From positions 60,756 through 124,755 of the IMG/VR virus record IMGVR_UViG_3300021387_000573: a DNA stretch of 64,000 bases. One strand, given 5' to 3'. Position numbers and translations under genes: made by a program. The notes under the pieces are model-generated. The model did not search any database. It had not been told where the DNA came from and saw only the letters and a list, made by a program, of their open reading frames with translations. This stretch comes from a virus (Duplodnaviria; Caudoviricetes). Shown here piece after piece: positions 1 to 59,149 of the stretch (position 1 is the stretch's first letter; each line of letters opens with the position of its first letter).

Positions 1-102
1 CTGGAAAAACTGAGAGACGATTCCGGCGATCCCGATATGTTCGACCGGCACTACTACTGTGTCCAGACCTTCAACCTGGATGAGAACTATTCGATCAAAT
101 AA
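1..102 (+). CDS. 3' end of hypothetical protein (partial)
   Basis: Open frame from position 1 to TAA at 100-102. Confidence 0.6.
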   Translation: MEKLRDDSGDPDMFDRHYYCVQTFNLDENYSIK

Positions 103-110
103 AATGCAGA

Positions 111-185
111 TTTCATAATGCAGAGCACACCGGAAAATCCGGTGTAATGCAGCCGAAGACCGTTGCAAGCCGGTTGTACTGGAAA
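111..185 (+). ncRNA. Twister self-cleaving ribozyme, circularly permuted (type P5-like)
   Basis: TGCA-GAG-CA-CACCGGA-aaa-TCCGGTG-TAA-TGCA-GCC-gaag-ACCG-TTGCAAGC-CGGT. P1, UAA cleavage loop, P2 (TGCA/TGCA), P4 with NNNCAAGC loop and pseudoknot T1 (UG/CA) are all present. Confidence 0.85.
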
Positions 186-187
186 AT

Positions 188-1093
188 ATGAATGGAGGTT
201 TACATATGAGCAATCGAATCCCGAGAAACGCCACCCGTTTGGAAGTTACCTGGCTGGTCGGCTCCAATGCTTGTCCGGCAGGAACCACAACAGAGGTTTG
301 GAAAGACAGCTTTGGCTGGCATGAACAAATCGGCGGAAAATACTACAGCGTTTTCCCTGCGCATCTGCGCAATGAAAACGTCTGCAAATTCAAGGTGATC
401 GCATGATGGAAAATACGATGAACATTGAACCTGCGTCCATACTGAGCTTGGAACAGTACATAAATGTACTCCACGATCGCATAGAGAGCGATCCGTATAT
501 GGAAAGCGCGTACACCGTAGAGGACAGACACAAACTGTCTGGCATCCGCGAGGCGCTGGGGCTGCTTGGCATCCACCTTGTCGAAAACGAGTATGGATAC
601 ATCGAATGTGTGAGGGTGTTCTGATGGAAAAAATGGACAATATCATCACTACTTACGCGCCGGAAACGGACATGACTTTCATCCTGGAGGATGACGAGTA
701 TCACACTAAGGTGATCGGTTGGTACTATGGCGAGCCGAACGTATGGGCAACAAAGCTCTTCGCCGGAAAACTTGAAGCCACATACAGTAAACCAAAGAGG
801 TGGAAAACATGAAATATCCCGTCGAATGCAACAACTGGTATCTTTTGGACGTGGACTCCATGGAATATTACAGAGTGACGCCGGAAGGCCATGAATTCAT
901 CGACATGACATGGCTTGACGGAGACGAGGAAGACACATACGCCGTCTGCACTAATCTGGAAGAGACGGAAGACTTCTATCAAGCTGAGTATGACTTTCAG
1001 GATCTTCACCACACAGATAGCTATTGTATCTCCGGCATCGTAACTAAATCAGAATCGGAAAGAATTATTCTGGATTATATCCAGACACATTAA
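188..1093 (+). CDS. Four small hypothetical genes (188-406, 403-624, ~624-812, ~809-1093)
   Basis: Tandem, translationally coupled ORFs; no recognised domain. Confidence 0.6.
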
Positions 1094-1173
1094 GGTTTCT
1101 CTGAGGGTTGAGCCTATCAGCCCTATCCCATGCAGATAAAACATGACTTGGAAATTTTGAAGGAGGATTTACA

Positions 1174-1876
1174 AATGCGTATTCACGAGGATAACAGTTA
1201 TATCAACAACAAACTGATTGCCGGTGGGCTGATGCGGAAAATTCCGCACTCCATCCGTCTGGACGTGGGTTACACCGAAGAGCAGAAAGCCGCGAATAGA
1301 GCCTATGCCGAGAAGGTTGGGCTGAACAGCCAAGAATGGAAGGATTCTTGCGAGGCAGCTCGTCAGCGTCAGGCAGAGGAAAATCTGAAGATCGTGGAGT
1401 ATCTCTCGGAGCATCTTACTGTCGGCGCGTTTCGCATGGAAAACTTGGACGATTGCGACCTCTGGTTCTGGTGCAATGACCTGTACAATACTTGCCACGA
1501 TGGAAGATCCGGCAGAGATTACAGTTACATCACCCTGTCTTTTGTCCGTGACGATGCCGATCTGAACCGGAAAAATTGCAGACGCGCTATGGAACTTCTC
1601 GCTGTCTATCCTTGTGATCTCATGCAGGCCACGATCCAGTGGAGCCAGGAGGAACGCAAGGAAAACACGACTCGCGTTGCGGAGAAAATCTTCCAGACTT
1701 ATGCTGGTAGGTTTGTCAAGCTCGGAAACACCGAAGGTAAGATCGAGAAGTGGGATAACGGTTATATCTTCAAGAAGAAGTATTCCAAGAAGTATGCCTA
1801 TCGCCTGACACCGCTGGAAATTTGCAGAAGTTTCTACTGCCAGGATGAAGTTGCCGCAGCGCTCGCGGCCATGTGA
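1174..1876 (+). CDS. Hypothetical protein
   Basis: AAGGAGG RBS before ATG 1174; long ORF. Confidence 0.75.
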
Positions 1877-1889: not shown

Positions 1890-3357
1890 ATGACAGTCAA
1901 AGAGTTTCTTTCCCTGTGGGCGGATAATCCGAGCATCAAAATCATGCAAATGCCGATCAAAAAGATTGACAAAAGCAGCGACCCTGTTCATAGACAGACA
2001 GCTCTCGTTTCGGAACTTTTGAAATCCAATCAGAACTATCTGGATTTTGAGATTGCTTACTTCCTGATGGATGACGATCTGCTAATCGTCGTCTGCAAAG
2101 CAAACGAAGAGCAGGCAAGAAAAACGGTCGATGCCTATCTTGAAGGCAGATGATTGGAGGATTTGAATGGGACAGCATAAATATAATCCGACAGCCATCG
2201 CCGCAAAGAACGGGGAGCTTCCGCCGAAGCCGCCGAAAATGAGCAAGCGAGAGCGCGAGGCGGCCCTGTACGCAGCCATGGAAAAAGCTATGCACGAGAA
2301 GGGTTTGCTGACGCCGGACGATCTGCTGAAAGTCGGAAACATTGAGAAGTATTATTAAATTGAATTGGAGAATCTGAAATGGATAGAGAAATTGTGGAAG
2401 AAATCATCTTCGGCATGGTCGATATCATCAACGAAAACTATCGGCTCAAGAGAGAGCTGAAAGAAGCCAAGGAGTATGAGCGGAAGTATAACGATCTGCT
2501 TGACCAGAGCGTGAAGAATGCCGCAGCCGGACAGAAAGCTATGTTTGAAGCGATCCTTGCCGGTACATTTGCATCTGGAAAATCGGACTGATTTGGAGGA
2601 TTTGATATGGATTCTTGGATTGATGCATTCGTGAAGTCTTACGAGGAAGAACAGCAGAGGCATATTAAAGAGGTTGATCCTGCCGTAGAGCTTGGCGCTT
2701 GGAAAAAACCATATGGAAAGATCTGTGAGTTTGAGGGCTCCAGACAGGTTGCCGTCATTTATTACGGAACATGTCCTCATTGCGGTGAAGAATCCGCAGT
2801 CAGTTTCAGGTTTGGAACATATGCCGATCCGGAGTACCCACCGTTCTGCCCGGAGTGCGGCCAGCAGGTGAAGACGATCATGCCGAAGCGATAAGGAGAA
2901 TTCGACATGGCAGCAGCGTACATCAAAGTGTTTTGCAATGGCGAACCTGTTCGGACATTTGGCGGAAATAAAAAGGAAGTCAGGATAATGTGGGAAGCGT
3001 ATGAAAACATGACTGTAGAAGAATTTGTCACGAAACATCCAAGATTTGCCGGAAAGTGCAAACACAGAAAACATATCGTTGTGATGTTCAAAAAGAAATG
3101 AAATATGACTTTTATCGGAGGTGGAAAAATTGATTGCTGCAAGACCTAAAATCGCCCGTTATGGCGTGGAAATTCTGGTTGACGAGACACGCTATCAGAA
3201 TAGCGTTTTGTTTTACGACACCGAAGCCGAGCGGGATGCTGTCGCAGAAAGTTTGAAGAACATCGTGCCGATTCGCAAGTGGGCAACAACGATCCCAAAA
3301 GCAAACTGTGTTCCCGGCTGGCTCGTTGTGGAAAATTCGATCAACTTTATTCAGTGA
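1890..3357 (+). CDS. Six small hypothetical genes (1890-2153, 2167-2358, 2379-2591, 2607-2894 Zn-ribbon, 2907-3101, 3121-3357)
   Basis: Consecutive ORFs, most with a GGAG(G) RBS; CPHC/CPEC motifs in 2607-2894. Confidence 0.7.
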
Positions 3358-4318: not shown

Positions 4319-7300
4319 TTGGAAACCTTTACATTCGATGCTTATATGGCCTATGGAGACACGGAGAAAACCACCTTCGAGATCAATATTGATCCGCGAG
4401 ATAAGGACCTTGCAACACGCTTGCGCAATGACATTGTAAAGAAGGTTGGAGCGGAGCCCGTATTCTGTAATGATCTGACCGGAGAACTTTGGATGTTCGA
4501 CATGAAATTGGGCGACGGCCTGTGGCTTGAAAACATTCATCCAAGCAACGATCTGAAAACAGTTCGCGCTGGGCTGTATAACGCGGAACATTATCGCCCT
4601 GCTGATTGGAACACCATTCCAACCGTACCGATTGACGAATAGGAGGGAACAATGTACATACACCTGAAAGACGGAACTGGTCGTCTGATCGATAACGATA
4701 ACGCCGAGCGCGAGCTGCGCGACATGCTGGAGGAATACTGCGGCAGGGAAGCGCTGGACTGCCTGGATTACGTCCTGGATCTCAAGACCGACGAGATCGA
4801 AGAAGAATTGAGGAAAGAATATGAGGAATTCGGAGACGATGAGCAAGATTGATACAGAGTTTTCTGGTCTGGTTTATAGATATAGACTTGATAAGGAACT
4901 GCTTGGAAAACATCCTGAGAATAAGGAACTTTTAGAAAGAAGAATCAGCAGACATAAGGATGATATCATTAATCTTGTTACTTCAGATGAGTTTTTGAAG
5001 AACTATAGTCAGAGAATGGGAAAATAAAAGGAGGATTTCATTATGAATGGGATCGATGCGAATGTTGCTTTTATTCCGGTTAGATGTATTTCAACCAGAG
5101 ATTCAAAGCCGGATCAGATCGAGGTTGGCAGAGCATATATAATCGACAGGCTTTCTATCTGGCTTGACGCAGACGGAGATGCCTACGGCGTCGTGTATGA
5201 TGCAGCGCGGAATAGAGTAGGGCAGATGCTTCTGTCCCATTTCACGAGCGTATAAGGAGGTTATATCTATGGATAGTTTCGTTTTAAAGGCATTGAAAGC
5301 TTTAAAATGGCATGATGATCGGCCAGGATTTGATGGAGTGGTCAGGCATTCTACCGGAGTTGACGATGTTTCCGTTTGCGGTACAAGAATCTATATCCGA
5401 TATGATGTAACGGCCAATACTTGCATTGAAAGCGGAATGGACGATGGGACATTTAGCGTTTTCGTTCAATTCCCGAACAATAATTTTATCAAGGAAACGG
5501 TCGGCTCTTTTGAATCAGGGAAGAAAAGATGCGAAGAACTCAGAAAAGAGTTCTGGAACAAGTGGTATAAAGAGATTGAAAGGATGTTCGCATAATGAAC
5601 AGAAAAGATATTAGAATTTGCTCTTGTGGCAGAATCCACTTCATTGATTCCGGGATCATTGACGAGGCGCTTGAACAGAACAAGAATACGCTTGTCATTT
5701 GCGGCGGCTGCGGCAGAACCTATGTGATCGGTGCAGACATTGAACCGGATTGGTACGAGCCGGATAAGATGTGCTACAACATGTATACGAGCACATTGTT
5801 CCACAATGGGAGCGAAGACCCTTATATCTTTGATCAGAAGTTCTTTGAGACAGTAGAAGGGAAATTCAAAGGCTTTCACAAGGTTATCATCGATCCTGGC
5901 AAGAGAGTCATGATGGACACCGGATACTATGCGACTGCCTATGACAACGGCAGCGGTATGTTCTATGACATGCAGTATCCTGATTTCTGGAAGATCAAAA
6001 AGACGGACGAGCTGGAGGATGTTCTGCTTTTCATTAACAAGTTCCAGCGAGATATGAAATCCGTCAACATGAACTGGCTCCTGCGTTCTCTCACGGACGA
6101 AGAGGCGGAACAGCTCTCACACTACGGCGTAAAGGGCCTGAACTGGAAGGGAACAAAGTGGGAGACCGAATATAACAGTCGATAAGGAGGCTTCTATGGC
6201 AAGTAAGAGAAACGCCAGGTTCCTGGATGCTCAGAATTTTATCTATGAACTGCGCCAGAAATGGTATCAAACCGAAGAACAGATGGAACGACACAATGCA
6301 GAAAACGGTAAAGATACAACGTATTATATTCTTCTTGGCCGTTGTGACGCTTTGATGCAGGCGGTAGATATGGCAGAAGAATTCGCAGCCGGCCAGTACG
6401 CTGTAAAGTACGAATAAACAGTAGTAAAGGAGAAATCTATTATGGATTTTATGGATGCTCTGGTTGATGGTTTTGTAGAAGTTCAGAATCAGCTTGAACC
6501 AGACTATGGCTATTTGTGCGATATTCGCGGCAATCCGACAAAGCGCCACCCGATGTCATATCCATATAGTTACGATGCTTATGTAATTTGGGCTAAAGAG
6601 TACAAAGAAAATGATGATGCGGTTTACTCAGACAGGCTCTATCAATGGGATTCAGAAAAGTATGATCGTTGTTGTATGGAAGTGTGGAACGACAGAAGGC
6701 AAGTGTTTAATAGAAGCAATCCCAAGGATATTCAAAAGTTTCTTTCGTTGTACTTTGGGGAAACGGTAAAACTGACTGGAATTGAAAAGGGATGCAACGT
6801 TTCAACTGGATGCCCATATTGGGTATTCTATTATCGAGCCGAATAAAAAGAGGGCAATTCTATGTCGATTCATTGCGATGATATTGATTGCTGTGACTTT
6901 TGCACAGATCTTTCTTGCGATGTCAATCCAAAAATGTTTGCGGCGATGTATGCTATATATAAGTCAAGCGAAGATGATGGCAATGATAGTACAGAATAAA
7001 ATTGTCACTTCATCACGAAAATAAATAGAAATATCGTGCCTTTTAACACGTTTTTCTATGGATAAAGTGCAAAATTTTACACATTATCCGCGTTTATCAA
7101 TAGAGGATTAGAACTGGCAATCATTGTTCATTGAATTATGTAAACTTTGGTGATAATCTTTTGACGTGAACAAAGAAGATCTGATAACTGCATAATTCAA
7201 TGAAAGGGGACTGCAAAATGAAAGAACTGTATACATTCAAGCGGAGCAAGAACGGTGAAATCAGTATCAATCCAGGTGGAAGCTATAAGGATGCCTGTGA

Positions 7301-7682: not shown

Positions 7683-7743
7683 AAGAGCAGGCGGGGACTT
7701 ATCTCTCCGCCTGAAAAATCTTGAAAAATATTTACATAACTTG

Positions 7744-7772
7744 TTGACAAATGCAAAATGTTCTGATAGAAT
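7744..7772 (+). promoter_or_regulatory. Sigma-A promoter carrying the conserved TGTTGACAAATGYA box
   Basis: TTGACA-17 bp-TAGAAT with extended TG. Confidence 0.85.
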
Positions 7773-7867
7773 ACAAGAGGGTCGAACGAAAGACCCGTTA
7801 AAATAGCAAGCAAAACGCAGTCAAAAGAAACTAAATACACAAAATACGGATTGTATCGGGAGGAATT

Positions 7868-8084: not shown

Positions 8085-11000
8085 ATGGGAACCATATGCA
8101 GAAAACTGAATATAGAATGGACATGCCATAATTGCAGATACCGAAAGCGAGGATCACAGCAGGCACCTTGCCGGTGGAGCATAGGCTGCCTGCACAGCAA
8201 CGGCTGGTGTTATGAGTTCAAACCAAGGCTGTCCCTGCTGTTTGCCGAGCTATTTCACGCGAAAAGATAAAACACGAATTTGATATTGGATAGGAGATAG
8301 ATGAGAATGACTAATTGTAATAACAATTTTGGAATCCAATATTTAAGCAATCAAGAATTGGCCAAGAAGTTAGAGAATCATGCCAAGTATTACTGGGATT
8401 ATTGGGATTTGGAGGGGTTGCACTTGGTCAAAGAAGATACTGCCCAGCTTTTATATGAAGCATCCAAAAGATTAAAACAAGTCCAATGAAACGCGAGATT
8501 TATAAGAGGTGTGCATGAAAAAGCACTGGGTTATCGACGCTGAAATCAACATGTGCGCGAACAAACATCTGATGATCTATGTGGATGCCAAAACAAAACG
8601 GCTCGCCTTGATGAAGGCAGAGAAGCAACTCGATGAAAAGAAGAAGACTGGAGAGCTTTTCTTCTACATGATTGAGTCATGCACGCAGTTAGAAGGAGAT
8701 AAATAGGGTAGATGCATATCAGACTTGAATTAGATCCTGCGCCGGTGCGGCATATCGCGGTGCAATGCCCGTCCTGTAAACGCTGGTTTCGTGGTCAGGA
8801 GATATCCGACAACTGGATTCAGTTTGAACACGAGATCAATTTTACAAAGTTTGATTGCCCGGTTTGCGGTCATTCGTTCGGCGCTTTCGAGTACGGTGAT
8901 GAAATCATCATCGACACAGACTATAAAGACATCTACGAAGGGTGTCTGCAAAAGAAAGAAACATGGGAGTAAAGGAGAGAACATGGAACTTAAAGATTTG
9001 TGTGGGCAGCATGTTTTGCAGGGTGTTGATTATGGCATTAAATATACGCGAGACGCCTGGTACGGTGGTACGGAAGAGGTAACGGGAATTCTTTTCCGAA
9101 TGGATGGTGTTTCGTACCTCGCCATTGAAGACCCCGACGATGGTTACAGAAGCCGGTGCGAAGAGCTCGTAGTCGTCAAGGAAATTCCGAAGACCAGACT
9201 TCCGGATGTACCTGTGGTTTGCAGCATGATGAAAGATGACCACTTTGAAAGAAATGATGTACTCGTTGTGAGAGACTCGCAGACCGGGGAAGTCGTCTTA
9301 GAGGTCGGAACAATGAACTGGGATGACTGGTATCCTTATTGCCATTTTGAATATCATCCCGAGAATCTTGCGTGTAACCAAGGCAGATAGGAAATAAAAG
9401 ATAAGTTTTATTCAAAACAAAGTGCCCATACCATGGGCGTTTCGAAGAGGTGAAAAATGGGGTTTTACGTCAGCGGCGTTGACGCGCCGAAGAATTGCAA
9501 AGAATGCGGGCATGATCTTGCCACCATTGCAAATTGTGTTTATACCAAGCGCTTGGTTCTTCCGGAAGAGCACGATATGTCCAGCGGTAGACATCCCCTG
9601 TGCCCGATTTCCCCGGTTGAAACGCCGCATGGGAGGATGGTTGATGTGGATGCGACGGACATCTACCGCAGAGAAGAACGTGCGTATGTAGACATCGAGG
9701 ATTCGCCTTTTAGCGAGTATCTTGAGGGCGTTAAAGATGGCTTGCATGAAGCGGCAAAGTGCCTGTCCACGGCCCACACCATCATTCCGGCAGAACGAGG
9801 AGGATGAACTATGATCGAAGTCAGTATTCCGGCCAGTTATCGCAGATGCCAATGCTGCGGCGACAAGGCTTTTCGTGAGTATACGTTCCGGCTCTCCAAC
9901 CAAGGCACGCAGATAGCCCTGTGTCATAACTGCATCAATATCCTGAACGCGCTTACCAATTATCCGCCGTTAGACAGGAGGGAACGCAATGACACAAAAG
10001 AATAAACGCCTGTTCGATGCGGCGCGTCTGATCCTGAACGACGGATGCCCGCCTGACCCAAAGCAATACATATGCCGCGTCAGCGAATGCTTCGACGAGA
10101 CGGCTTGCACCCGCTGTTGGGATGAATATCTGCTCCGAATTGTGAACGCAAAGGAGGACTGACGTATGGGTGTATATTTCCCGAACATGAAAATGCCAAG
10201 ATGTTGCTATGAGTGCGACCTGTGTTACGATTGCTTTTACTGCAAAAGCCTTGAGGTCAGTTTCTATGATCCGCAAGACAGTGCATTTATCCCGGATGGG
10301 TTTGACCCGGCAAAGGAAAGGCTTCCAAACTGCACCGCCTTCAACCTCCCGGCACACGGAGATGTGATAGACAGACAAAAACTGTATGAGAATTCATGGG
10401 ATGATGAGTCTTTGGCAGACGCGGTTAGATATGCACCGGCCATCATTCCGGCAGAGGAGAGTTATGCGTAAAACAAACTACGATAATTTCCATGAAATGA
10501 AACCGTATGAATTGGCTGATTTTCTGGCTCAGTTGATGGATTGCTGTTTCAACTCCGGGCGTTGTGGCGAATGCGATGAGGAGTGCCCGATGTATGACTG
10601 CTGCAATACCTGCGGTGTTGACAACGTGGAAGACTGGTTGATGCAGGAAGTAAAATGCTGAAAAGATATACTATGAATCTCGATGCAGTTTATGTTCGTA
10701 GCTCAGATGGTGAATTTCATCTGCGTGCAAAAGCGAGTCAAGAAAAGAAATCCGCTACACACTATGACCTGCTTATCCGCAAAACGTCGGATGAGATGGC
10801 GGAGTTTCTAGAGAAATTGACAAAAGGATTTATAACGCCGTCTGGCTGTCCGAAGACTGGCTGCCATAGTGAGAGTTGCAAAACTTGCTGGCTTGACTGG
10901 CTTATGCAAAAAGCAGAATGAAATGTGAGGTTTATTCGCATGAATGATACGACCCTGGAGCTTATCTATGCGCTAAAACGCCGTAATTATGAAAAAGATA

Positions 11001-11278: not shown

Positions 11279-11701
11279 ATGAAGATAACCGTTATGAACC
11301 GGCGCGATGCCGTTCGGTACAGTTTCCATCCTCAGCAGGAGAAAACATCCGTCATTTCGATCAGCACACCGGGAGAGCAATACCACACAAGCGTTTACAC
11401 GAGCCCGTATAACGGCATTTCTTCCGTGCTGCGCCTCTGGTTTGATGACGTGGAGAGTGGGAAGGACTGCATCAAGAAAGAGGACACCGAGAAGATCAAA
11501 CAGTTTGTCAAAGCACACAAAGAAGATTCGATCATCGTCCATTGTGATGCCGGCGTTTCTCGCTCCGCCGGGATCGCTGCAGCTCTGATGAAATACTACA
11601 ACGGAGACGATACTCCGATCTTTGATAATCCAAGATACTGTCCGAACATGCTATGCTATCGGACAATGCTGAACACGATGATGGAAGGAGATAGATCATG
11701 A
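11279..11701 (+). CDS. Protein tyrosine / dual-specificity phosphatase-like protein
   Basis: HCDAGVSRS (HCx5R) signature; upstream FDD acid loop. Confidence 0.85.
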   Translation: MKITVMNRRDAVRYSFHPQQEKTSVISISTPGEQYHTSVYTSPYNGISSVLRLWFDDVESGKDCIKKEDTEKIKQFVKAHKEDSIIVHCDAGVSRSAGIAAALMKYYNGDDTPIFDNPRYCPNMLCYRTMLNTMMEGDRS

Positions 11702-12528
11702 AGAAATACGACGCGCTCGGCGAGCGCATGAAAGGCTATGAGAACGTCACGCGCACCCATCTGATGCGCCGCTGTCCAGTCATCATCCGTATCGACGGCA
11801 AGGCGTTTCACACCTTCACGAGAGGCTTTCAAAAGCCTTTCGACCCCATCCTTGTGCAGTCCATGCAGGAGACCATGAAGTATCTCTGCGAGAATATCCA
11901 GGGCTGTGTGCTTGGTTATACGCAGTCTGACGAGATTTCTCTGGTGCTGGTGGACTATCTGCGGCTGAACAGTTGCGCGTGGTTTGATAACAACATCCAG
12001 AAGATGGTGAGTGTTGCGGCCAGCATGGCGACTATGGCTTTTAACAGATTCTTCTATAGGAGTGTTACTCAGTATAAAGAGAATATTCGAGAATACTTGG
12101 ATGAAAACGGAATGTTTCGAGAGTATTCAGACGAGAATCCGTCCTATTTAGTTATTTATGATAAAGCAATTGAGGGTGGCGCCACCTTCGACGCCCGCGT
12201 GTTCAACGTCCCAAAGGAAGAGGTCTGCAACAATATCCTCTGGAGGCAGAACGACGCCACAAGAAACAGCATTGAAGCTGTTGGACAGGCATATTTCTCT
12301 CAGGCGCAGCTCCACGGCAAGTCTTGCAACGAGATTCAGGATATGCTTATGACAGAGAAGGGTCTGAACTGGAATACGATCCCGGAGCACCTGAAGCGCG
12401 GCTCCTGTTGTATCCGTCTGACAGATCAGGAGACCGGCAGAGGTGAGTGGTTTGTTGATAAGAACCCGCCTATTTTCAAGGGAGACGGTCGGCAGTACAT
12501 TGACAACCTGGTCTTCGTAGGGGAGTAA
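11698..12528 (+). CDS. thg1: tRNA(His) guanylyltransferase Thg1-like protein (3'-5' polymerase)
   Basis: RMKGYE, RIDGKAFHTFT, YTQSDEIS, FDARV and WRQNDATRNS motifs. Confidence 0.92.
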   Translation: MKKYDALGERMKGYENVTRTHLMRRCPVIIRIDGKAFHTFTRGFQKPFDPILVQSMQETMKYLCENIQGCVLGYTQSDEISLVLVDYLRLNSCAWFDNNIQKMVSVAASMATMAFNRFFYRSVTQYKENIREYLDENGMFREYSDENPSYLVIYDKAIEGGATFDARVFNVPKEEVCNNILWRQNDATRNSIEAVGQAYFSQAQLHGKSCNEIQDMLMTEKGLNWNTIPEHLKRGSCCIRLTDQETGRGEWFVDKNPPIFKGDGRQYIDNLVFVGE

Positions 12529-12929
12529 GTATGAGAGCAATATTCTGCATTATATTGGCTTACTACTTGTTTCGTGTGGCCGCAGCCATTGTGCCAGGTT
12601 TGAAAACGGATTTTTACCGTGGCTTATTTATGCTTGCGTCTTTTATAGCCGTTCTTTGCGGTTCGATTTTGGCTGCTATGGGGAAGTGAAAGAGGTTTAT
12701 TCATGACAGTAAAAGAATTGATTGAACATTTAAAAAATTTTGATATGGATCTTCCCGTTGTTAGTTATGAAGGCGAAGAATTTAGTGTTGTCAGGTTAAA
12801 CGATGGGAGCAACGATGTTGCTGGCAACAGTTACGATGGTGAACCATATGTGATTTTGAAATGAAATGCGAATTTTATCATGAAAAAAGTGCCCATGAAT
12901 TGGGCGCTTGTAAAAAAGGAGAAGTGAGA

Positions 12930-17718: not shown

Positions 17719-17779
17719 AAGAGTGGTTTGATCCGCCTCGGCTGAGGTTGGGGCGGATAAAATTATCTCCACAAAACTG

Positions 17780-19072: not shown

Positions 19073-19474
19073 ATGTCGGATCATAGGCAGCAGAGTTATC
19101 CTCGTTGTTATGAGATATGGATGTGCGATCTTGGCAGCAATGGCGTCGGGATACAGAGTGGTTATCGTCCTGTTCTGATCCTGTCAAATGACAGAAATAA
19201 TCTGTTCTCTCCGACAGTTAACGTCGCTCCTCTGACAACAAAAATGAACAAACGTAATCTGCCGGTTCATGTGGAGCTCTGGAACAACAGGGCGTATGGC
19301 CTGCTCTCTCCAAGCACGATTCTGATCGAGCAGCTTACAACTGTTCATGTCAACGCGCTCGACAGAAAGATTGGGCAGATCACGGATGATGAAACGCTGG
19401 CCCAAATTTATACCGCAGTCAGTGTCCAGTTCCCGATCATTCAGGCGTTATCAACTCTTCCTCTTACTTCTTAA
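19073..19474 (+). CDS. mazF: PemK/MazF family endoribonuclease
   Basis: EIWMCDL...QSGYRPVLILSND..N..SPTVNVAPLTT...PVHV...STILIEQLTTV. Confidence 0.9.
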   Translation: MSDHRQQSYPRCYEIWMCDLGSNGVGIQSGYRPVLILSNDRNNLFSPTVNVAPLTTKMNKRNLPVHVELWNNRAYGLLSPSTILIEQLTTVHVNALDRKIGQITDDETLAQIYTAVSVQFPIIQALSTLPLTS

Positions 19475-39213: not shown

Positions 39214-39313
39214 ATAAAACAACACTTTATTCAGAAGTGCTACTAAAACAACACCGCTTCAGCGGTGATTACATAGATCGTGAAATGCAGTCAAAAACAA
39301 CTAAGGAGAATGA

Positions 39314-45923: not shown

Positions 45924-46929
45924 AAACAAGTATGAATGAAAACATATGGTCAGTTTACATGCACATTAACAAGGTTAATGGCAAAAAGTACATAGGAATT
46001 ACAAGCCAGGACCCGGAAAGAAGGTGGGGTTCTGACGGAAACAAATACCAAAAATCAGTTTTTAAAAACGCTATCAAAAAATATGGATGGGATAACTTCC
46101 AGCACGAAGTAATCTTCCGTAGTTTATCAGAAGAAGATGCAAAATACTTGGAGCGTCTATTTATTAAATGCTTCGATACGAAAATCCCGAATGGTTATAA
46201 CATGACGGATGGCGGCGATGGAACCGTTGGTCTATCTCCAAGTGAAGAGGTCAGGACCAAAATGTCTGTTGCCTCCAAGACAAAGTGGGAAGATCCAGCC
46301 TTTAGAGCAAAAATGACGGCGTTAAGAAACGATTGTAATGGAGCGTATCAATCCGAAGAGTTTAGAAATAAAATCTCAATGCTCGTTTCAGGAGAAAAGA
46401 ATCCAAATTTCAATCACAAATGGACAGATGAAATGAAACAGAGTCTTAGAGAAAAACAGAAGAACAATCCTATGTATCAAAACGAGACCAACCCAAATGC
46501 GAAAAAGATTCGGTGTATTGAAACCGGAGAAGTTTTTAATTGTATGAAATATGCACAAGAACGATTTGAACTTAAATCAACAGGGTCGTTCACGGCAGCA
46601 ATTAAAAAAGGAAAGACAGCAGCCGGTTATCATTGGGAATATGTTTGACATTTATAAATGTCGCTATATGCAGTGATACATATAGAAAACCCAGAATATC
46701 AGGGGAAACCGTTAGAGCCATTATTACCAAGCGCGAGTGAAAACAAAGCGTGGCGCTGCCAACTACAGCGGTATGGTAACAAGATAATGGATTTGGCAAT
46801 CCTGAGAGACAGCCCTAAACCGCAAGGCAAGGGAAGCTCGCAACGACTACCAATGGGCATCCGAGATAATATCAACGATGATGGTATAGTCTACTCCCTT
46901 TAAATATGGGGAAACCCAGGGTATAAAGG
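45924..46929 (+). mobile_element. Group I intron (IA-like) in dnaE
   Basis: Removal joins CCC GAT|ATC GAC to give the catalytic PDID; exon ends in U and intron ends in G; Q AATCCTGAG; P7 GACTA(46845)/TAGTC(46887). Confidence 0.92.
45932..46648 (+). CDS. Intron-encoded GIY-YIG homing endonuclease (NUMOD3-like C-terminus)
   Basis: SVYMH...KKYIGIT, GYNMTDGG, GEKNP. Confidence 0.9.
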   Translation: MNENIWSVYMHINKVNGKKYIGITSQDPERRWGSDGNKYQKSVFKNAIKKYGWDNFQHEVIFRSLSEEDAKYLERLFIKCFDTKIPNGYNMTDGGDGTVGLSPSEEVRTKMSVASKTKWEDPAFRAKMTALRNDCNGAYQSEEFRNKISMLVSGEKNPNFNHKWTDEMKQSLREKQKNNPMYQNETNPNAKKIRCIETGEVFNCMKYAQERFELKSTGSFTAAIKKGKTAAGYHWEYV

Positions 46930-48828
46930 ATCGACCTTAACACAGCCGATCGTGTCCCGTTCATCAAGGCCACAGAAGACCTTCTCGGTAAAGAGAACTG
47001 TGCGTGGATGCTGGCATGGAAGCCTCTCCAGGATTCCTCTGCTTTCCGCCTCTATTGCAAAGGGATCGGGCTTCACATCTCCGAATACGATGATGTTGCC
47101 AAGAATCTGGACGCCTACCGCGAAGATAAAAAGTGGAAGGACATTATCGAGAAGAGCAAACGTTTTATCGGCGTGATCGACAGCGTGTCGGAATCGCCGT
47201 GCTCCATGCTTCTGTACTATAAGCCTGTGCGAAAAGAGATCGGCCTCGTCCGCATGACCGGCAGCGGCAAGATCTGCTGTATGCTGGATGGCTATAACTG
47301 CGATAAGTATAAGTATCTCAAGAACGATTATTTGACCGTCACAGTATGGGCTATCATCAAAGATGTGTGTGAAATGGCCGACATCCCAATCCCTACGATC
47401 CGGGAAATGGATGAGCTCTTGGATGAGAAAACATTTGATGTTTACGAAAAAGGTCTGACATGTACCATCAACCAGGCTGATAGTGAGTTTGCGACGGCGC
47501 TTGCCAAGCGATATAAGCCGCACAGCGTTTCAGAAATGTCCGCCTTTGTCGCTATCATTCGCCCAGGATGCGCAAGCTTGCTCCAGGATTTTGTCGATCG
47601 CAAGCCTTATACGACCGGCGTCACGGAATTGGATGACATTCTGATCGAAGGCAAGCACCGTATGATCTATCAGGAGCTTATCATGAAATATCTGATCTGG
47701 CTCGGCATCCCGGAAACAGGCAGCTACGATATCATTAAGAAGATTGCAAAGAAAAAATTCAAGGAAAAAGAGCTTGCCGATCTAAAGAAAAAGCTTCTTA
47801 AAGGCTGGATCAAACGTGTCGGCGAAGAGGATGGCTTTATCGAAACGTGGACGGTGGTAGAGCAGGCCGCGCATTATTCCTTCAACGCGTCACACTCGCT
47901 GTCATATGCCTATGACAGCCTGTACGGAGCCTACCTAAAGTCCCATTATCCGCTCGAATACTACACCGTTGCTCTGAATTATTATGCCGATGATGCAGAT
48001 CGAACCATGAAGCTTACGGATGAGCTTTCCTATTTCGGCATCAAGCTGAAACCTATCAAATTCAGGCACTCCAAAGGCGGCTATGTTTTGTCAAGAGAAG
48101 ATAACAGCATCTATAAAGGGATCGGCTCCATCAAGCACATGAACGATGATGCGGCAGATGCTCTGTATGAGCTTCGGGATAACCGTTATGAATCGTTTGC
48201 CGAACTTCTTCGTGACATCAAAGAAAAAACATCCTTGGATTCTCGCCAACTCAAAATCCTGATCGAACTTGATTTCTTTTCTGAGTTTGGAGATGCAAAC
48301 TATCTGCTGAAGTTGTCAGAAATCTTTGACAGTTTTTCTGACAAGCAACTCCGAAAAGAGAAACTGGATGTGCTTGGTATCAACTTGGACGTTGTTCGTC
48401 CTCTGTGTGGCCGCGAAACAGATAAGATGTTCACACAGTTTGATAAGGCCACTGTGGTAAAAGAGATCGGCAGACACATCCGTTACACGAAGCGCACGCT
48501 GCGACAGGAGCTTGAAGCACAAGCTGAGTACCTTGGTTATCTGACAACCTCTGGAGAACAGTACATGGGTATCGGTATGGTTATGGAAGTTGACACCAAA
48601 TATTCCCCGAAGCTGAAGGTATATTCCTTAAAACAGGGCGAAACTATCGACTGCAAGATCGACAGAAAGACGTTCAACAAGGTAAGGCTCAAAGAGCGCG
48701 ACATCATCAAGATTCAGGGGCAGACACGCAAACCGAAGGTCAGGAAGAACGAAGCAGGGGAGTGGGAGCCTATTCCCGGCGTCAATGAGATTTGGATTAC
48801 GAAGTATCAGAAAGTAGAGAATTTGTGA
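46930..48828 (+). CDS. dnaE: DNA polymerase III alpha, exon 2
   Basis: IDLN..., KNDYL, IRPG, YQE, YSFNASHS..Y, YLKSHYP. Confidence 0.93.
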   Translation: MDLNTADRVPFIKATEDLLGKENCAWMLAWKPLQDSSAFRLYCKGIGLHISEYDDVAKNLDAYREDKKWKDIIEKSKRFIGVIDSVSESPCSMLLYYKPVRKEIGLVRMTGSGKICCMLDGYNCDKYKYLKNDYLTVTVWAIIKDVCEMADIPIPTIREMDELLDEKTFDVYEKGLTCTINQADSEFATALAKRYKPHSVSEMSAFVAIIRPGCASLLQDFVDRKPYTTGVTELDDILIEGKHRMIYQELIMKYLIWLGIPETGSYDIIKKIAKKKFKEKELADLKKKLLKGWIKRVGEEDGFIETWTVVEQAAHYSFNASHSLSYAYDSLYGAYLKSHYPLEYYTVALNYYADDADRTMKLTDELSYFGIKLKPIKFRHSKGGYVLSREDNSIYKGIGSIKHMNDDAADALYELRDNRYESFAELLRDIKEKTSLDSRQLKILIELDFFSEFGDANYLLKLSEIFDSFSDKQLRKEKLDVLGINLDVVRPLCGRETDKMFTQFDKATVVKEIGRHIRYTKRTLRQELEAQAEYLGYLTTSGEQYMGIGMVMEVDTKYSPKLKVYSLKQGETIDCKIDRKTFNKVRLKERDIIKIQGQTRKPKVRKNEAGEWEPIPGVNEIWITKYQKVENL

Positions 48829-54403: not shown

Positions 54404-54675
54404 TGGATCAAGAAATCATCGAACTCGAAAACGAATTCATTGTGCTGGCCGTTCCGAAAAATACGGTCGAAGTTACAATTTCTGCAAAGGTCTATCACGA
54501 TGGCAAACTGCAAGATGTCCATAGGACTATGGACTTCCAAGAAGTACGCGATGCATTTAAAGAAGCGGAGCAAGGATATATCCCGTCTGATGCCGTGTTC
54601 TCCTTGACTCCGCTCGGGGAGAAGTATGCAGAAGAACTTATTAAAAAGCAGAGAGGTCTGTTTGAGGAGGAATGA
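54400..54675 (+). CDS. Hypothetical protein
   Basis: Coupled ORF. Confidence 0.65.
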
Positions 54676-54679
54676 GAAT

Positions 54680-55939
54680 TTGATTTATGGTATTAACGAC
54701 AAACCGAGCGTAGGCAAGACATTACTCTTTGGTTTACAGCTTATGCTTAGTGTGTTTGTGGCTTCAGTGCTTATTGCAAATATCTGCGGTGTTTCTGTCA
54801 GCGGCGCTTTGTTTGGTGCCGGCCTCGCAACCATTACCTATCTGGTCACAACGAAATGGCAGTCTCCCATGTTCGTTTCCAATAGCGGTGCTTTTGTCGC
54901 TCCGGTTCTGATCGCATTGGCGGCTGGCGGGTATCCTGCTGTAGCTGTTGGCGGCTTAACGACATGCCTTGTGTACTGTGCCTTTGGCTATATTTTCTCA
55001 AAAGTTCCGGTCGATAGGATTTACGAAGTCTTTCCGAAAGCACTGATCGGTGCCGTCACGATGGTAATTGGAATCACGCTCATGGGATTTATCGGTACAT
55101 ACGTTCAGGTAGGAGGGGAAACAAATATATGGGGAATCCTGATTGCATTGTTCACCGCTATCGTTATAGCGGTTACAAGCCACTATGCGAGAGGGATGGC
55201 GAAGATCCTGCCTTTCTTGATCGGTACGCTTGCCGGTTATGTATTCTCGATTATCTTGTCTATCGCTGGGATCATCAAGATCGTAGACTTCAGTGTGTTT
55301 CAGAACATGACGCTGATTGCAATGCCTGATCTCGCATTTACGCATTGGGGAACAGGCTTCGGATTTAATGTCGCATCCATCGTTGTCATTTATATCGCTT
55401 TTACAATCAGCGCCATGATGGAATGCCTCAGCGATCACGCGGCTCTTGGCAGCATTATCGGCACAGATCTATACAAAAAGCCTGGACTTGGCAGGATTTT
55501 TTCCGGAGAAGGTCTGGCAAATCTTGTTGGGTCCGTGCTCGGCGGCCTAGGCATCTGTTCCTATGGCGAGGGTGTTGCCTGTGTTGGTTATTCCATGGTC
55601 GCGTCAACGATCGTAACGGCAACTGCCGCCCTGATGCTTATGCTTCTTTCGTTTATCGCGCCAGTACAGGCGTTCATCGCGTCGATCCCAAGCTGCGTAT
55701 TTGGAGGAGCCGCCATCGTTCTCTATGGCTTCATTGCCTGTTCCGGCGTCAAGATGCTCCAGCAGGTTGATCTGAATAACCAGAAGAACCTTATTATGGT
55801 GTCCAGCGTTCTGTCTCTTGGCATCAGCGGGCTGGCCATTGGAGGTGCTACCTTTGCCATCAGCGGAACTGCGCTTGCGCTAGTGTTTGGCGTTGTTCTG
55901 AATCTTATCTTAAAGGAGAAAGAGATTGAAAAAGTTTAA
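54680..55939 (+). CDS. NCS2 family nucleobase (uracil/xanthine) permease
   Basis: About 12 TM helices; GLQ, SNSGAFV, ECLSDH, SYGE, IPSCVFGG motifs of the UraA/PyrP family. Confidence 0.88.
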   Translation: MIYGINDKPSVGKTLLFGLQLMLSVFVASVLIANICGVSVSGALFGAGLATITYLVTTKWQSPMFVSNSGAFVAPVLIALAAGGYPAVAVGGLTTCLVYCAFGYIFSKVPVDRIYEVFPKALIGAVTMVIGITLMGFIGTYVQVGGETNIWGILIALFTAIVIAVTSHYARGMAKILPFLIGTLAGYVFSIILSIAGIIKIVDFSVFQNMTLIAMPDLAFTHWGTGFGFNVASIVVIYIAFTISAMMECLSDHAALGSIIGTDLYKKPGLGRIFSGEGLANLVGSVLGGLGICSYGEGVACVGYSMVASTIVTATAALMLMLLSFIAPVQAFIASIPSCVFGGAAIVLYGFIACSGVKMLQQVDLNNQKNLIMVSSVLSLGISGLAIGGATFAISGTALALVFGVVLNLILKEKEIEKV

Positions 55940-56450
55940 TGCTTATTTGGCTGGTCCAATCTTCACCTATGGAGACCTGCTCCGAAATACAGAGTGGGCG
56001 TCAAAATTGCGCAATGCTTTCCCGGAGATGGACCTTTATTCTCCTGTAGAGAATACGGATATCAACGGTGTGGAAGGGAAGAAAAAGTTCGCAGGCTCAA
56101 AAGAAGTAGCTGCAGCGGATAATGCCAGACTCGATAAAACAGATGTGCTCATTGCCTGCATTGATGGAGACGTTCTCCCTGCCGGCACATGTGCCGAAAT
56201 CGGCAAATTCCATGAAAAGATCACACGCGGCGATAACAAATGCCTTGTCGGGATCTGCACGGACAACAGACAATGCTTCCTGACCCACAGCGAAGCGAAA
56301 GATGCTGGCGGAGCCTCGTCGCCGGGAGAGCAGCAATACTCCTATCAGAACATTTATGTCACCGGGCTCATCAAAGAGTACGGTGTTCTCGTCAGCAACA
56401 TTGATGACGTGATCTCCGCTATCAAAGAATGGAGAAAGAATATTGCATAA
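55926..56450 (+). CDS. Nucleoside 2-deoxyribosyltransferase family protein
   Basis: YLAGPIF, YSP, D...L...D, GTCAEIG. Confidence 0.85.
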   Translation: MKKFNAYLAGPIFTYGDLLRNTEWASKLRNAFPEMDLYSPVENTDINGVEGKKKFAGSKEVAAADNARLDKTDVLIACIDGDVLPAGTCAEIGKFHEKITRGDNKCLVGICTDNRQCFLTHSEAKDAGGASSPGEQQYSYQNIYVTGLIKEYGVLVSNIDDVISAIKEWRKNIA

Positions 56451-56733
56451 ATACATAAGCCTTGACTACCTCATGGGGAAGACCGATGCCTTTCCATATT
56501 CATACAGAGCGGTTTACGAGCACATTCTTGCGAATGCTCCGGTCAAAGAGTTTGATGATAACGAACTGATATCCGTTCGAACCAATCTCTATGATGAGGA
56601 AGAAATCCATAAAAACTGCACGGTGCAGATCTGGCGCAATTCTGTAACAGGAGAAACGTCATTCGGCTGGTGGGACAACGCAGATCAGACAGATCAGAAT
56701 GAGTGCGAACTGTACGGAGATATGGAGGATTAA
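56443..56733 (+). CDS. Hypothetical protein
   Basis: Coupled ORF. Confidence 0.6.
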   Translation: MHKYISLDYLMGKTDAFPYSYRAVYEHILANAPVKEFDDNELISVRTNLYDEEEIHKNCTVQIWRNSVTGETSFGWWDNADQTDQNECELYGDMED

Positions 56734-57504
56734 ATGGTCTATATCACAGGCGACACCCATGCCGACTTCAGCCGATTCACATCAAGGAATTTCCAGGAAA
56801 TCAAAGAAATGACCAAGGATGACATTGTTATCATCCTTGGTGATTTCGGCGGCATCTGGGATTACAAGCAGAGCAGCGACAGGGAAAAAGGAAGACTCAA
56901 ATTCCTGGAAGAGAAACCATGCACTTTCTGCTTTGTCGATGGCAATCATGAAAACTACGACAGGTTGAACGGTGATGAATTCCCGGTCGTTGATTTCCAT
57001 GGCGGTAAAGCGCACCAGATCCGAAGCAACATCTTCCACCTAATGCGCGGACACATTTTCGACTTTGAATGCAAGAAGTTCTTCGTCATGGGCGGCGCGA
57101 GTTCGCACGACATACAAGACGGCATTCTCGACCCAGAGAAATATTCCGATCCCGAGCTCTTTGAGCGCACTTATCGTCGCTGGTATAACCAAGGCCGCAT
57201 GTTCCGTGTAAACCATGTGTCCTGGTGGGAGCGTGAGATCCCAAGTGAGGAAGAACTGGAACGAGGCAAAGATACGCTGCGAAACGCCGGACATAAAGTT
57301 GACTATGTTCTAACACATTGTCTGCCGCAAACAGTGTGCGGGGCTCTCGGCTACTACGGCTCTGACCGCCTGACTCAATACTTCGACGAACTGCTGGAAG
57401 AAGGACTTAAGTTCAAAGAGTGGCACTGCGGACATTACCATCAGATTTATGATGCACTTGGTAAGTATCACATCCACTATGAAGATATCCAGCGGCTGTT
57501 ATGA
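56734..57504 (+). CDS. Calcineurin-like metallophosphoesterase
   Basis: GDTH, GDFG, GNHE, TH, GHYH. Confidence 0.92.
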   Translation: MVYITGDTHADFSRFTSRNFQEIKEMTKDDIVIILGDFGGIWDYKQSSDREKGRLKFLEEKPCTFCFVDGNHENYDRLNGDEFPVVDFHGGKAHQIRSNIFHLMRGHIFDFECKKFFVMGGASSHDIQDGILDPEKYSDPELFERTYRRWYNQGRMFRVNHVSWWEREIPSEEELERGKDTLRNAGHKVDYVLTHCLPQTVCGALGYYGSDRLTQYFDELLEEGLKFKEWHCGHYHQIYDALGKYHIHYEDIQRLL

Positions 57505-57519
57505 AAGGATTCTTTTATC

Positions 57520-59048
57520 ATGAAAACAGATGTAGAGCAGTGCTTCGTCCGTGAGTGGGAGCATGTTCCTGGTAACGGGTTTAATCATGGATGGAGGTGC
57601 CCAATTTGCATGAAGACTGTCTGGCTTGATCTTGGTATTTCACCGGATGACTGTGACATGCACTATTGCACATGCTGCGGCGAACCGCTTATGGAACACG
57701 GCGGCACGTTCATAGGATGGAAGCCTGAATTAGAATCTGAACCGCAAAAATAAAAGTGCCCAATTCATGGGCACTTTTAAAGGTCAAAATTAATGATAAA
57801 AAAAAATACTGGTTTTATTTGATGGAGGATAAATGGACGAGGTAGCGAGATACAGAAAGAAAAAGCCGCAGAACTCAAAGGCCAGCAAGCGAGCAGATCA
57901 TAAACACCAGTATGAAAAGTCCATCACAATGCACACTGGTCTGAACGGTGACTTGCCTCCGTCATTCTACTGGTCAACGCACTGCTCAATCTGTGGCAGG
58001 TCTGGCGACTTCTCCCTTGACAACGACGATTTCCGTAAACCGGAATATAAAGGACGCAGCCTGTTCTGGTATCAAGACATGTATCTGCCAAAAGAAGTGG
58101 TTTTCGCTATGTATCCAGATATTCATATATATACAAATGTGCCAAACGAGTTTGGCAAAGAAATTAGAGTTCGATAAAATATAGGAGAGTTTATGAACAA
58201 AGGTAATTGGACAAAGGTAGATGCTAACCTGGTTTACAACAAAAACGGAATATACGCGGCTGCATATAGATGCAGTGAATGCGGCGATTGTGCGCCGTTT
58301 AAATCCAAGTATTGTCCAAGTTGCGGAGCCAACATGCAGGTAGAGAAAAGTATCGAAGAACTGATTGCCGATCTTAGGAAGTTTGGAGGCTACTGCGACA
58401 GACGGGGAGACGGAGAACATAGTGAACTGGTTAAACAGGCAGCCAGTGTTATCGAAAATTTTACGAGTAGGTCAACTTGATTAAAGAAGTGTTTTATCTG
58501 GAGAACAGATGAGAAATCTACAATCGATTGAGTTCCAGTTTGAGAACTGCGAATACTTCAGTATTGATGCCAAATACATAGGAGCCTTCTACGTTGGCGA
58601 TATCAGCCATGAAGTCAGCCGCATCGCCTGTAATGCAATCTGCGATATGGACGTTGCTCACGAATTCTGTGCAGAGATATATGGGGAAGGGAATGATACT
58701 TATTCGTCCTGGTGTGACAACCTCGACAAGTTTAATAGAATCCTTTCCTATGACGACATCACCAGCGTAACATTAAAATATGATAATGGCTCGGAAGAAG
58801 AACTGTATCTTGATTATAAAGTGGTGGCAGGAGAGGAAGATATGCTTGGCGCTAATAATGTCAACCAGTCGTCCAAGAAATCAAAACTCGGAAACCTATA
58901 CATAGTAGTTCACAGTTACAAAACTGTTGATAGCGAGTTTCCTGATTCCGAGATTGAAGATGCTGACAAGATCGATTTTGAAAAAGAGATGATCGGAGTC
59001 AACGATCCAGAACCATTTACAGAAACAGAAGCGACTAACGCAAAATAA
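57520..59048 (+). CDS. Four hypothetical genes (57520-57753, 57833-58177, 58193-58480, 58509-59048)
   Basis: Tandem ORFs with Zn-ribbon motifs; separated by the palindromic repeats. Confidence 0.65.
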
Positions 59049-59149
59049 AAAGTGCCCATGAATTGGGAACTTACATCTGAATAAAAACAGTGTTTTATAA
59101 TCAAAAGGCGATGGGTATCCATCGCCTAAACGCATAAGAAAGGATTAAA

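Follow-up and report, generated by a model that had tools for sequence, protein, structure and literature searches.

A recurrent 18-bp dyad with a variable centre of fixed 6-bp length marks accessory-gene junctions and natural-variant breakpoints in a rumen phage

Why should some thirty copies of one short palindrome recur between the accessory genes of a phage? The question is raised by IMG/VR virus record IMGVR_UViG_3300021387_000573, a linear contig of 124,755 bp that is ~81% complete, of which we analysed bases 60756-124755 (64,000 nt; hereafter the window, whose numbering is used throughout unless record positions are named). The first-pass annotation of this DNA had described the palindrome ATNAAA-N6-TTTNAT, here called the dyad, and had read it as the border of exchangeable gene cassettes. 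We report that natural variants of the phage cross over at these sites, and we name a candidate for the responsible enzyme. With about even confidence, we propose that the dyad is recognised by a protein and forms the regular joint between accessory genes, at which related phages cross over to acquire, shed or exchange them.

The abundance of the dyad and the rigidity of its spacing were borne out. Exact copies number 23 in the window, compared with a mean of 0.20 and a maximum of 2 in shuffled sequence, and 40 dyads are found when up to one mismatch is allowed, compared with 4.78 +/- 2.24 in shuffles. Comparison of spacer lengths, as the first-pass annotation had suggested, left 6 bp as the sole enriched spacing, with 23 exact matches at 6 bp, three at 11 bp, and none or one at each of the other lengths from 0 to 10 and from 12 to 14 bp. 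Each of the 32 positions originally listed holds a copy (21 exact, nine with one mismatch, and two, at 37712 and 36727, with two). The accompanying statement that the core replication block and the lysis module are free of dyads needs amendment on both counts: one exact copy at 43080 lies inside the primase gene, consistent with chance background, and another at 62851-62868, absent from the original list, lies between minus-strand genes of the lysis region. The intragenic copy at 43080 and three intragenic matches with one mismatch are together at the chance background level. Shortly before the window come four further exact copies (at 58422, 58643, 59255 and 60310 of the record), and the whole record holds 30. 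One exact match, at record positions 21453-21470 and thus 39.3 kb before the window, is conserved together with its flanks in two related phage records, G001 (at 127793) and G002 (at 29542).

Nearly all real copies stand at gene ends, where they separate about 35 small genes. The upstream stop codon had been noted in the left arm of most copies, and at ~19 junction copies it is there, being formed by motif positions 2-4; it lies in the right arm at three copies and abuts the motif at four. Left-arm stops occur at the exact copies 99-116 (the stop of the upstream gene, with a Twister-P5 ribozyme next), 3098-3115 (with a Shine-Dalgarno sequence and start 15 nt downstream), 5024-5041 (spacer GGAGGA, ATG 2 nt after), 8267-8284 (in which the open reading frame 8085-8270 terminates), 12861-12878 (hairpin 12 nt downstream), 17715-17732 (hairpin next, ~110 nt upstream of a small recombinase gene), 34427-34444 and 57501-57518 (both with ATG 2 nt after), as well as at the one-mismatch copies 6996-7013, 8486-8503, 10918-10935 and 30491-30508. 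The stop is in the right arm at 16111-16128 (exact, TTTAAT) and 17032-17049 (one mismatch), and it abuts the left arm at 15555-15572 (exact). Likewise, the idea that the spacer supplies the ribosome-binding site was upheld at ~10 copies, which have a Shine-Dalgarno-like centre and whose right arm is followed by ATG at 2 nt. Another ~8 copies have a Shine-Dalgarno sequence outside the dyad, with the start, 12-15 nt downstream, and ~13 junction copies have no start within 30 nt and precede hairpins, the Twister-P5 ribozyme or a tRNA block. Bracketing by two copies, as first described, was found for the single genes 8301-8489, 35733-36170 and 36180-36368 and for the tRNA Thr-Ser block (22119-23651). 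The copies that flank the latter (22090-22107 on its left border and 23653-23670, which begins 2 nt after tRNA-Ser) are both exact, have ATCAAA arms and contain no stop codon. Exact copies also lie at 26344-26361 (intergenic) and 58480-58497.

Three side observations concern the surroundings of the dyad. The ribozyme, of type P5 (119-174; Rfam RF02684, 48.1 bits against a gathering threshold of 37.6), starts 3 nt after the dyad at 99-116, between two small genes. A second repeat family, AAAAGT-GCCCA-N5-TGGGC-ACTTTT, is found at 9424-9438, 12891-12905, 57758-57772, 59054-59068 and near 26390; it resembles a bidirectional terminator and lies on either side of a dyad at a distance of 12 nt, or once 28 nt (12 nt downstream of the exact copy 9394-9411, 12 nt upstream of the exact copy 59081-59098, and 28 nt upstream of the one-mismatch copy 57801-57818). 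In the relative G002 a different palindrome, CGAAASTTTCG, present in 10 copies, is likewise located 14 nt from dyads.

This context invites a reading in which the dyad is a junction signal acting in RNA or in translation, composed of a stop, an A-rich stretch, a Shine-Dalgarno sequence, a U-rich stretch and AUG, with breakpoints reflecting selection for intact genes. The left-arm stops and the Shine-Dalgarno-like centres followed by ATG speak for it, and Cluster K mycobacteriophages offer a parallel in their start-associated sequences (PMC3203893). However, many centres are not Shine-Dalgarno-like, copies border tRNA genes and terminator-like hairpins where no start codon is near, and the late minus-strand genes, which also need stops and starts, do without the motif. 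Positions 3 and 16 pair in only 10 of the 23 exact copies, and because of this lack of co-variation no hairpin appears to be under selection; an RNA hairpin, whose stem would be six A-U pairs, was dropped as a candidate. The dyad is an independent 18-bp unit and not a by-product of stop-codon and ribosome-site context, and its double use as stop codon and ribosome site is produced by tight gene packing. We consider a translational role as the primary one very unlikely, and two further results given below, on breakpoints and on the symmetry of the site in relatives, weigh in the same direction.

The evidence for exchange comes from strain variants. Contigs with different gene content were obtained by exact-protein look-ups and aligned to the window, and breakpoints at the motif were found in independent assemblies, namely L078/L079, L083, Logan contigs of two runs (one of them from another study, 2024) and L200-L206. 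Homology begins exactly at the left edge of the copies at -445, 9394 (in L083) and 35717, and it stops at the right arm or the ATG of the copy at 36365. A second strain of the source study and the 2024 sheep sample provide further joints. The 2024 contig, X4, loses homology at 33429, 5 nt after the one-mismatch copy 33407-33424, and its homology begins at 37465, 3 nt before the exact copy 37468-37485; another contig joint runs from 36187 to 37254. Beyond the one-mismatch copy at 39214-39231, variants regain homology 13 nt later, at a repeat of AAAACAACAC. A degenerate dyad with two mismatches is found at 36727-36744. Two candidate events were rejected: a joint from 21449 to 39285 is regarded as a repeat artefact, and a supposed moved cassette, the 135-aa gene of L083, has no similarity to the 135-aa gene at 8983-9390.

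The most informative location is the one-mismatch copy at 31640-31657, a hot spot at which at least four alternative gene arrays, the empty form included, follow the same 64-aa gene. In the window this site reads ATAAAC GGTTAA TTTCAT and is followed by a DUF6275 gene and others. In a replaced form, seen in four contigs, it reads ATAAAC TGTAGG TTTTAT and is followed by one or two PAPS-reductase genes, and the PAPS-reductase array of L200 terminates in ATGAAA GGTTAA TTTGAT before a 113-aa gene. The empty form reads ATAAAC TGTAGG TTTGAT and is directly joined to the 113-aa gene that follows the exact copy 33859-33876, at whose right arm the homology of variants resumes; this 113-aa gene occurs behind three different spacers. 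The empty form is the exact empty-site junction that the first-pass annotation had proposed to look for, and it is present in two contigs, L203 and L206. In the joint from 31645 to 33871, homology runs to the very end of the left arm of 31640 and returns exactly where the right arm of 33859 starts; 2.5 kb of different DNA intervene. The segment at stake, a plus-strand multi-gene unit of 2.2 kb (31646-33870), is bounded by the spacers of two dyads; it is replaced by PAPS-reductase genes in L200 and L205 and is exactly absent in L203 and L206. As an alternative cassette at 31640, PAPS-reductase-family genes occupy positions 8352-10694 of L200, 8289-9287 of L201 and 8233-9231 of L204.

Combination of unrelated neighbours around a common centre is not confined to this hot spot. 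The centre TGGAGT (the exact copy 36365-36382) occurs among strains with three left and four right neighbours, GGTTAA likewise with three and four, and TGAGGT (the exact copy 36167-36184) with two and three, while GTAGGC (the exact copy 35717-35734), GGATAG (37712-37729, with two mismatches) and GAGGGT each have two unrelated neighbours on either side; the copy at 37712 is retained as an island with non-homologous flanks in L078, L200 and L201. The variable arm letters, at positions 3, 6 and 16, segregate with their own flank, and breaks fall to the left or to the right of the 6-bp centre. In most cases the recombining partners have the centre in common, three joints have unlike centres, and the likeness of the arms blurs the exact point of crossover.

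Quantitatively, 23 of 66 distinct ends of homology blocks fall inside 29-nt intervals around the motif, which make up 2.5% of the sequence, although some of these ends represent divergence and not recombination. In the compared regions, breakpoints were found at 9 of 23 junctions with the motif and at 5 of 62 without it (odds ratio 7.3, p=0.0016). Genes beside motifs are also less often shared, with homologues in 15 relatives for 7 of 43, compared with 43 of 94 other genes (p=0.001). The claim that dyads delimit exchangeable gene units is therefore supported by the homology breaks of natural variants and by their preference for motif junctions over other gene junctions, and the same preference counts against a purely translational signal.

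Is the site a peculiarity of this phage? A set of 75 IMG/VR loci was found via the Thg1-like protein, and the dyad was counted over whole records against a reversed-pattern control. It was enriched in G001 (21 versus 1), G002 (18 versus 0), G013 (13 versus 0), G025 (13 versus 1), G022 (11 versus 1) and others, and no enrichment was found in records such as G007, G008, G020, G023 and G024. The control for the 6-bp spacer holds in every enriched relative record, and in every one of them the excess copies lie at gene boundaries or are intergenic. G021 and G022 carry 22-23 copies of the core TAAAA-N6-TTTTA. In G001, G002 and G013, the relatives with the closest recombinase and SroF-like genes (both described below), the dyad extends symmetrically to 26 bp, or ~10 bp per arm: of 52 copies, 28 have G at -4 and 28 have C at +4 (background 0.20; p=8e-8 for each). 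This symmetric extension points to recognition of duplex DNA by a dimer, and as a property of duplex DNA it again disfavours a signal read in RNA. The position of the motif at orthologous junctions of distant relatives is not conserved (1 of 42 versus 20 of 366), and sharing of the 6-bp centre with the distant G001, G002 and G013 is not above chance, only close pairs sharing it. Two of the motif-poor records gave side observations of their own: bases 1-700 of G023 hold a CRISPR-like array of at least 11 units, with a ~36-bp repeat containing CTCACACACCCGTGAGGGTGTGAC every 64-65 bp, and both G015 (78736-80050) and G023 (55653-56967) have seven copies of CTAAA-N4-TTTAG followed by ATA, spaced ~130-290 bp apart, an iteron-like arrangement that may be a replication origin.

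The site also occurs in Bacillus phage SPbeta (NC_001884), which has 14 dyads at spacer 6 and one to six at each of the other spacers from 2 to 10. The left arm is ATAAAA in 14 of 14 and the right arm TTTTAT in 13 of 14, and three have a left-arm stop. The site family is thus kept across many large Firmicutes phages, SPbeta included. Separately, three SPbeta dyads (113663, 116414 and 132746) carry, 6-7 nt further on, TAAAAATAAAA(T), a sequence similar to the phi3T SroF box in reverse complement, and in four of 10 published MrpR-bound gene regions (yorE, yorM, yopV and yorZ) a dyad lies within ~250 bp.

Which protein might act on the dyad? The leading candidate enzyme is a small tyrosine recombinase of 322 aa (17841-18809, plus strand), in which the R, HxxR, H and Y residues are present. 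It is additional to a canonical phage integrase with SAM-like N-terminal domains (59369-60556, plus strand), which is probably the prophage integrase. In one module with the small recombinase, on the plus strand at 19530-20564, lies a gene for a 344-aa protein of SroF/MrpR-like recombinase fold, a candidate DNA binder. This protein belongs to no Pfam family; an alignment of 79 homologues gave a model with a predicted local distance difference test score of 93, whose best structural matches are DNA-bound phi3T SroF, the SroF-Sar complex and SPbeta MrpR/YopR, and Tn1549 Int is also among its fold matches. The likeness to SroF/MrpR is one of fold, and no sequence match was found. The same module contains a MazF/PemK-family endoribonuclease (19073-19474, plus strand). 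By predicted fold and by layout, the lysogeny module appears SPbeta-like. In SPbeta, yopP lies beside the repressor gene and SprA carries out integration (PMC8612738, PMC10516654); yopP encodes an Xer-like recombinase without an assigned role and is a core gene of SPbeta-like phages (PMC10516654, PMC8612738).

Homologues of the small recombinase were found in 10 of 38 relatives, nine of which are motif-rich. Profiling by tblastn of all record proteins, together with all-against-all clustering over 16 genomes, yielded no reader protein specific to motif-rich genomes; the small recombinase was present in seven of seven motif-rich and two of five motif-poor genomes. The best profile match, a C5 methyltransferase fragment (six of seven versus none of five), was set aside, as it cannot explain an A/T site. 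A search of genome contigs with the recombinase, made with the host in mind, returned no relative.

Taken with the geometry of the site, two inverted arms around a 6-bp centre as in the core sites of tyrosine recombinases, these observations suggest that exchange is site-specific and catalysed by a tyrosine-type recombinase. Such core sites, of Xer/dif, pdif or lox type, have overlaps of 6-8 bp, which recombining partners normally have in common. A recombinase dimer would bind the two inverted arms, and strands would be swapped at both edges of a 6-bp overlap. The most likely enzyme would be the catalytically complete small recombinase at 17841-18809, near the SroF/MrpR-like protein in the SPbeta-like module. 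Because almost every centre differs, copies within one genome would not recombine with each other; each would do so only with its match, carried by a co-infecting relative or a resident prophage, and the content between two matched copies would be swapped. The original cassette proposal is thus supported in part: the pattern of exchange at the sites stands, and the recombinase at 17841 is a candidate agent on the grounds of its co-occurrence in relatives and of site geometry.

Several observations weigh against this mechanism. In this phage the fixed letters amount to only five per arm, few for the core site of a recombinase, and the strain contigs carry no read-level sign of catalysis at dyads. 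Excised circles, which the first-pass annotation had proposed to look for, and back-joints at motifs were both absent from the strain contigs examined. About nine breakpoints lie at motif-less junctions or inside genes, and accessory status confounds the junction test, dispensable genes being both variable and motif-flanked. Identical Shine-Dalgarno-like centres could partly reflect convergence. As to the enzyme, weaker homologues of the recombinase (jackhmmer) also occur in the motif-poor G015 and G023, several motif-rich records, most of them incomplete, have no recombinase homologue, and many genes of the same clade would co-occur with the motif equally well. The recombinase shows no sequence similarity to SPbeta YopP. 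Finally, some copies in relatives lie inside genes and are distributed genome-wide, a pattern that a regulator fits at least as well.

That last point leads to the main rival reading, rather unlikely in our view and in line with the protein-binding alternative of the first-pass annotation, in which the dyad is primarily regulatory: a dimeric phage protein would use it as operator or as a roadblock to transcription, like mycobacteriophage stoperators or the SPBRE boxes of SPbeta, and crossovers would be a by-product of short-homology recombination at matching 12-22-bp islands. Candidate agents of such recombination are encoded, as a Sak single-strand annealing protein (39314-39973, plus strand) and a PD-(D/E)XK nuclease (43962-44738, plus strand), the latter being either a recombination exonuclease or a candidate for cut-and-repair. 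Most homology blocks take in the whole 18-mer, so that partners usually share 18-25 bp, and the PeSL elements of T4-type phages set a precedent (PMC2839356, PMC4122927). At 31640/33859, however, the unlike centres leave only 3-6 bp shared, which is very short for annealing. The symmetric 26-bp extension in relatives is typical of a dimeric DNA binder. The phage encodes a protein of predicted SroF/MrpR fold, a family that binds multiple sites across SPbeta-like genomes (PMC10516654; bioRxiv 10.1101/2025.11.27.690993), and the four records richest in ATNAAA-N6-TTTNAT are exactly those that have strong homologues of the 344-aa protein. SroF, though, reads an asymmetric 26-bp box as a monomer and is a poor fit as the reader of a dyad; a SroF-type box was rejected as an explanation of the site, no phi3T-like box having been found in the record. 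By consensus scans, the dyads do not coincide with predicted sigma-A promoters, and a hairpin is near only ~9 of them. An operator of the ImmR-like repressor (24757-25101, minus strand) was likewise rejected, since the repeats in the divergent switch region (25102-25309) are of another kind and the dyad is missing there; the dyads lie away from the ImmR/ImmA switch. The lack of positional conservation at orthologous junctions of relatives would also be unexpected for gene-specific regulation. RNA contigs span parts of the 25-35 kb region and bridge the copies at 30491, 31640 and 33407, although transcript ends are not visible in contigs, DNA may have been carried over, and stretches lacking RNA cover are uninformative.

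The PD-(D/E)XK gene bears on one more reading, according to which a dimeric phage nuclease cuts in or near the centre and repair from a co-infecting relative copies the neighbouring DNA, as in the homing of the free-standing endonucleases of T-even phages. Homodimeric PD-(D/E)XK enzymes typically target palindromic arms around a non-specific N6, a layout that the dyad has, and the breaks are located at the motif. In the first profile this gene was the best correlated (seven of 10 motif-rich versus none of five motif-poor genomes by tblastn), but a more sensitive search finds the family in the motif-poor G015 and G023 too, and its location beside the primase, Sak and DnaE genes suggests a recombination exonuclease. 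An HNH gene lies within the array (38097-38468, with a weak Pfam match). Self-cleavage would call for protection, yet the one methyltransferase that was noted modifies cytosine at C5, and no position of the 18-mer is fixed as C; nor would gene conversion tracts be expected to stop so exactly at the centre. We regard cut-and-repair as improbable, and both it and the purely translational reading are less likely explanations of the dyad.

Comparison with known systems places the dyad, as a proposed recombination site, closest in working principle to pdif-bounded dif modules and to PeSL shuffling, while integrons share the logic of an array but not the site. The dif modules of Acinetobacter plasmids, acted on by XerC/XerD, likewise have inverted arms around a 6-bp centre and are discrete gene modules found in different contexts, a tyrosine recombinase being presumed. 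The pdif arms, however, are 11 bp long with distinct XerC and XerD halves, whereas the arms of the dyad are alike, with five fixed letters (~10 bp with weak flanks in relatives), and the dyads, set in an array of phage accessory genes, incorporate the stop codon and the ribosome site. PeSLs are likewise repeated intergenic elements in hyperplastic regions of small non-essential genes (PMC2839356, PMC4122927), and the dyad, like PeSLs, forms the border of indels and replacements that distinguish close relatives. Yet PeSLs are longer promoter-terminator composites that are recombined by homology and for which mini-circles have been shown (PMC2839356, PMC4122927), whereas the dyad has 18 bp, a variable centre and, by consensus scans, neither promoter nor terminator.

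Integron arrays, to which the first-pass annotation had also pointed, are similar in that small promoterless open reading frames of the same orientation carry an imperfect palindrome at the 3' end and cassettes are gained and lost. The attC sites, however, span 57-141 bp, fold as single strands, and have extrahelical bases and R/L boxes; IntI has a signature insertion, and the platform comprises attI and Pc. No long folded attC was found here, the site being 18 bp with six A-T pairs that include a non-co-varying position, and many breakpoints also fall at motif-less junctions, so the integron idea was not upheld; the two window recombinases have generic Phage_integrase matches only. Integrases of the Tn916/Tn1549 type likewise use A/T-tract arms around a 6-bp crossover region, with coupling sequences of 6-7 bp, and they tolerate non-identical centres, which would explain the joints at 31640/33859. 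Their target consensus has the reverse order, a T-tract and then an A-tract, and they move one element with its own ends and not many cassettes.

Among regulatory repeats, the stoperators of Cluster A mycobacteriophages (PMC9283540) and the SPBRE/SroF boxes (PMC10516654; bioRxiv 10.1101/2025.11.27.690993) likewise number in the tens, are short and largely intergenic, and belong to temperate phages. They are asymmetric, read by a monomer and repress transcription, whereas the dyad is symmetric and its documented property is recombination; stoperators act in one orientation and the dyad has none. Being a dyad that lies off promoters, in a record in which no phi3T-like box was found, the site does not have the features of a SPBRE/SroF box, which is asymmetric, 15-26 bp long and located in promoter regions. 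The SAS/ESAS of Cluster K mycobacteriophages (PMC3203893) are also short repeats in the non-structural half of the genome that overlap the ribosome-binding position and sometimes the upstream stop, but SAS are asymmetric, contain a fixed Shine-Dalgarno sequence and always stand by a start codon (3-7 bp upstream). The dyad differs in its variable centre and in the one third of copies, the ~13 junction copies noted above, that have no start nearby.

The wider setting of the array is that of a sheep-rumen phage. Near-identical contigs come from sheep-rumen assemblies and partial matches from other ruminant gut metagenomes, and a DNA search of the phage collection with the record returned short conserved pieces only. 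Plus-strand genes extend from ~5 kb before the window up to 60.5 kb, and the structural genes lie upstream on the minus strand. The window encodes eight tRNAs, an ImmR/ImmA pair on the minus strand, and a replication block with Sak, DnaB, primase, the PD-(D/E)XK nuclease, an intron-split DnaE and NrdD. A group I intron-like stretch (~46688-46931) interrupts the gene for DnaE (Pol III alpha) and shares 73% identity with the Intron_gpI annotated in Clostridium phage phiCD211. A gene of the xanthine/uracil permease family (54626-55939; Pfam 171.7 bits) adjoins that of the anaerobic ribonucleotide reductase NrdD in the nucleotide-metabolism block. An RNA-repair set comprises a Thg1-like 3'-5' polymerase, an RNA ligase and a polynucleotide-kinase-like P-loop protein (11698-12528, 28153-29256 and 29257-30267), accompanied by the eight tRNAs and the orphan MazF; in some strains two unrelated genes, coding for 453 and 111 aa, stand in place of the RNA ligase, and the breakpoints there have no dyad. 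A stretch of ~95 nt is duplicated at 7743-7836 and 21433-21525 with 80% identity; a strong sigma-A-like promoter (TTGACA-17-TAGAAT with TG) overlaps the former of the two.

We found no description of the dyad in the searched literature, and a preprint on SPbeta recombination places crossovers at regions of homology and names no motif. Phage genomes are mosaics, and for most of them it is undecided whether special sequences or random breakage followed by selection produced the joints. Tentatively, and with clearly less than even confidence, we suggest that SPbeta-like phages, from rumen and gut Firmicutes phages to SPbeta itself, possess a dedicated gene-exchange system in which an Xer/YopP-like recombinase acts on an 18-26-bp junction dyad whose centre sets the pairing, such that relatives swap genes in register without self-scrambling. 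If true, this system would represent a phage equivalent of integrons and pdif modules and would provide a function for the conserved yopP-type recombinase; the enrichment of dyads in SPbeta makes the proposal directly testable in Bacillus subtilis. The exchanged accessory genes include metabolic ones, such as PAPS reductases, and if the exchange is enzyme-driven, genes would move through gut and rumen viromes by a new route, and natural orthogonal crossover sites would become available for the engineering of large phages.

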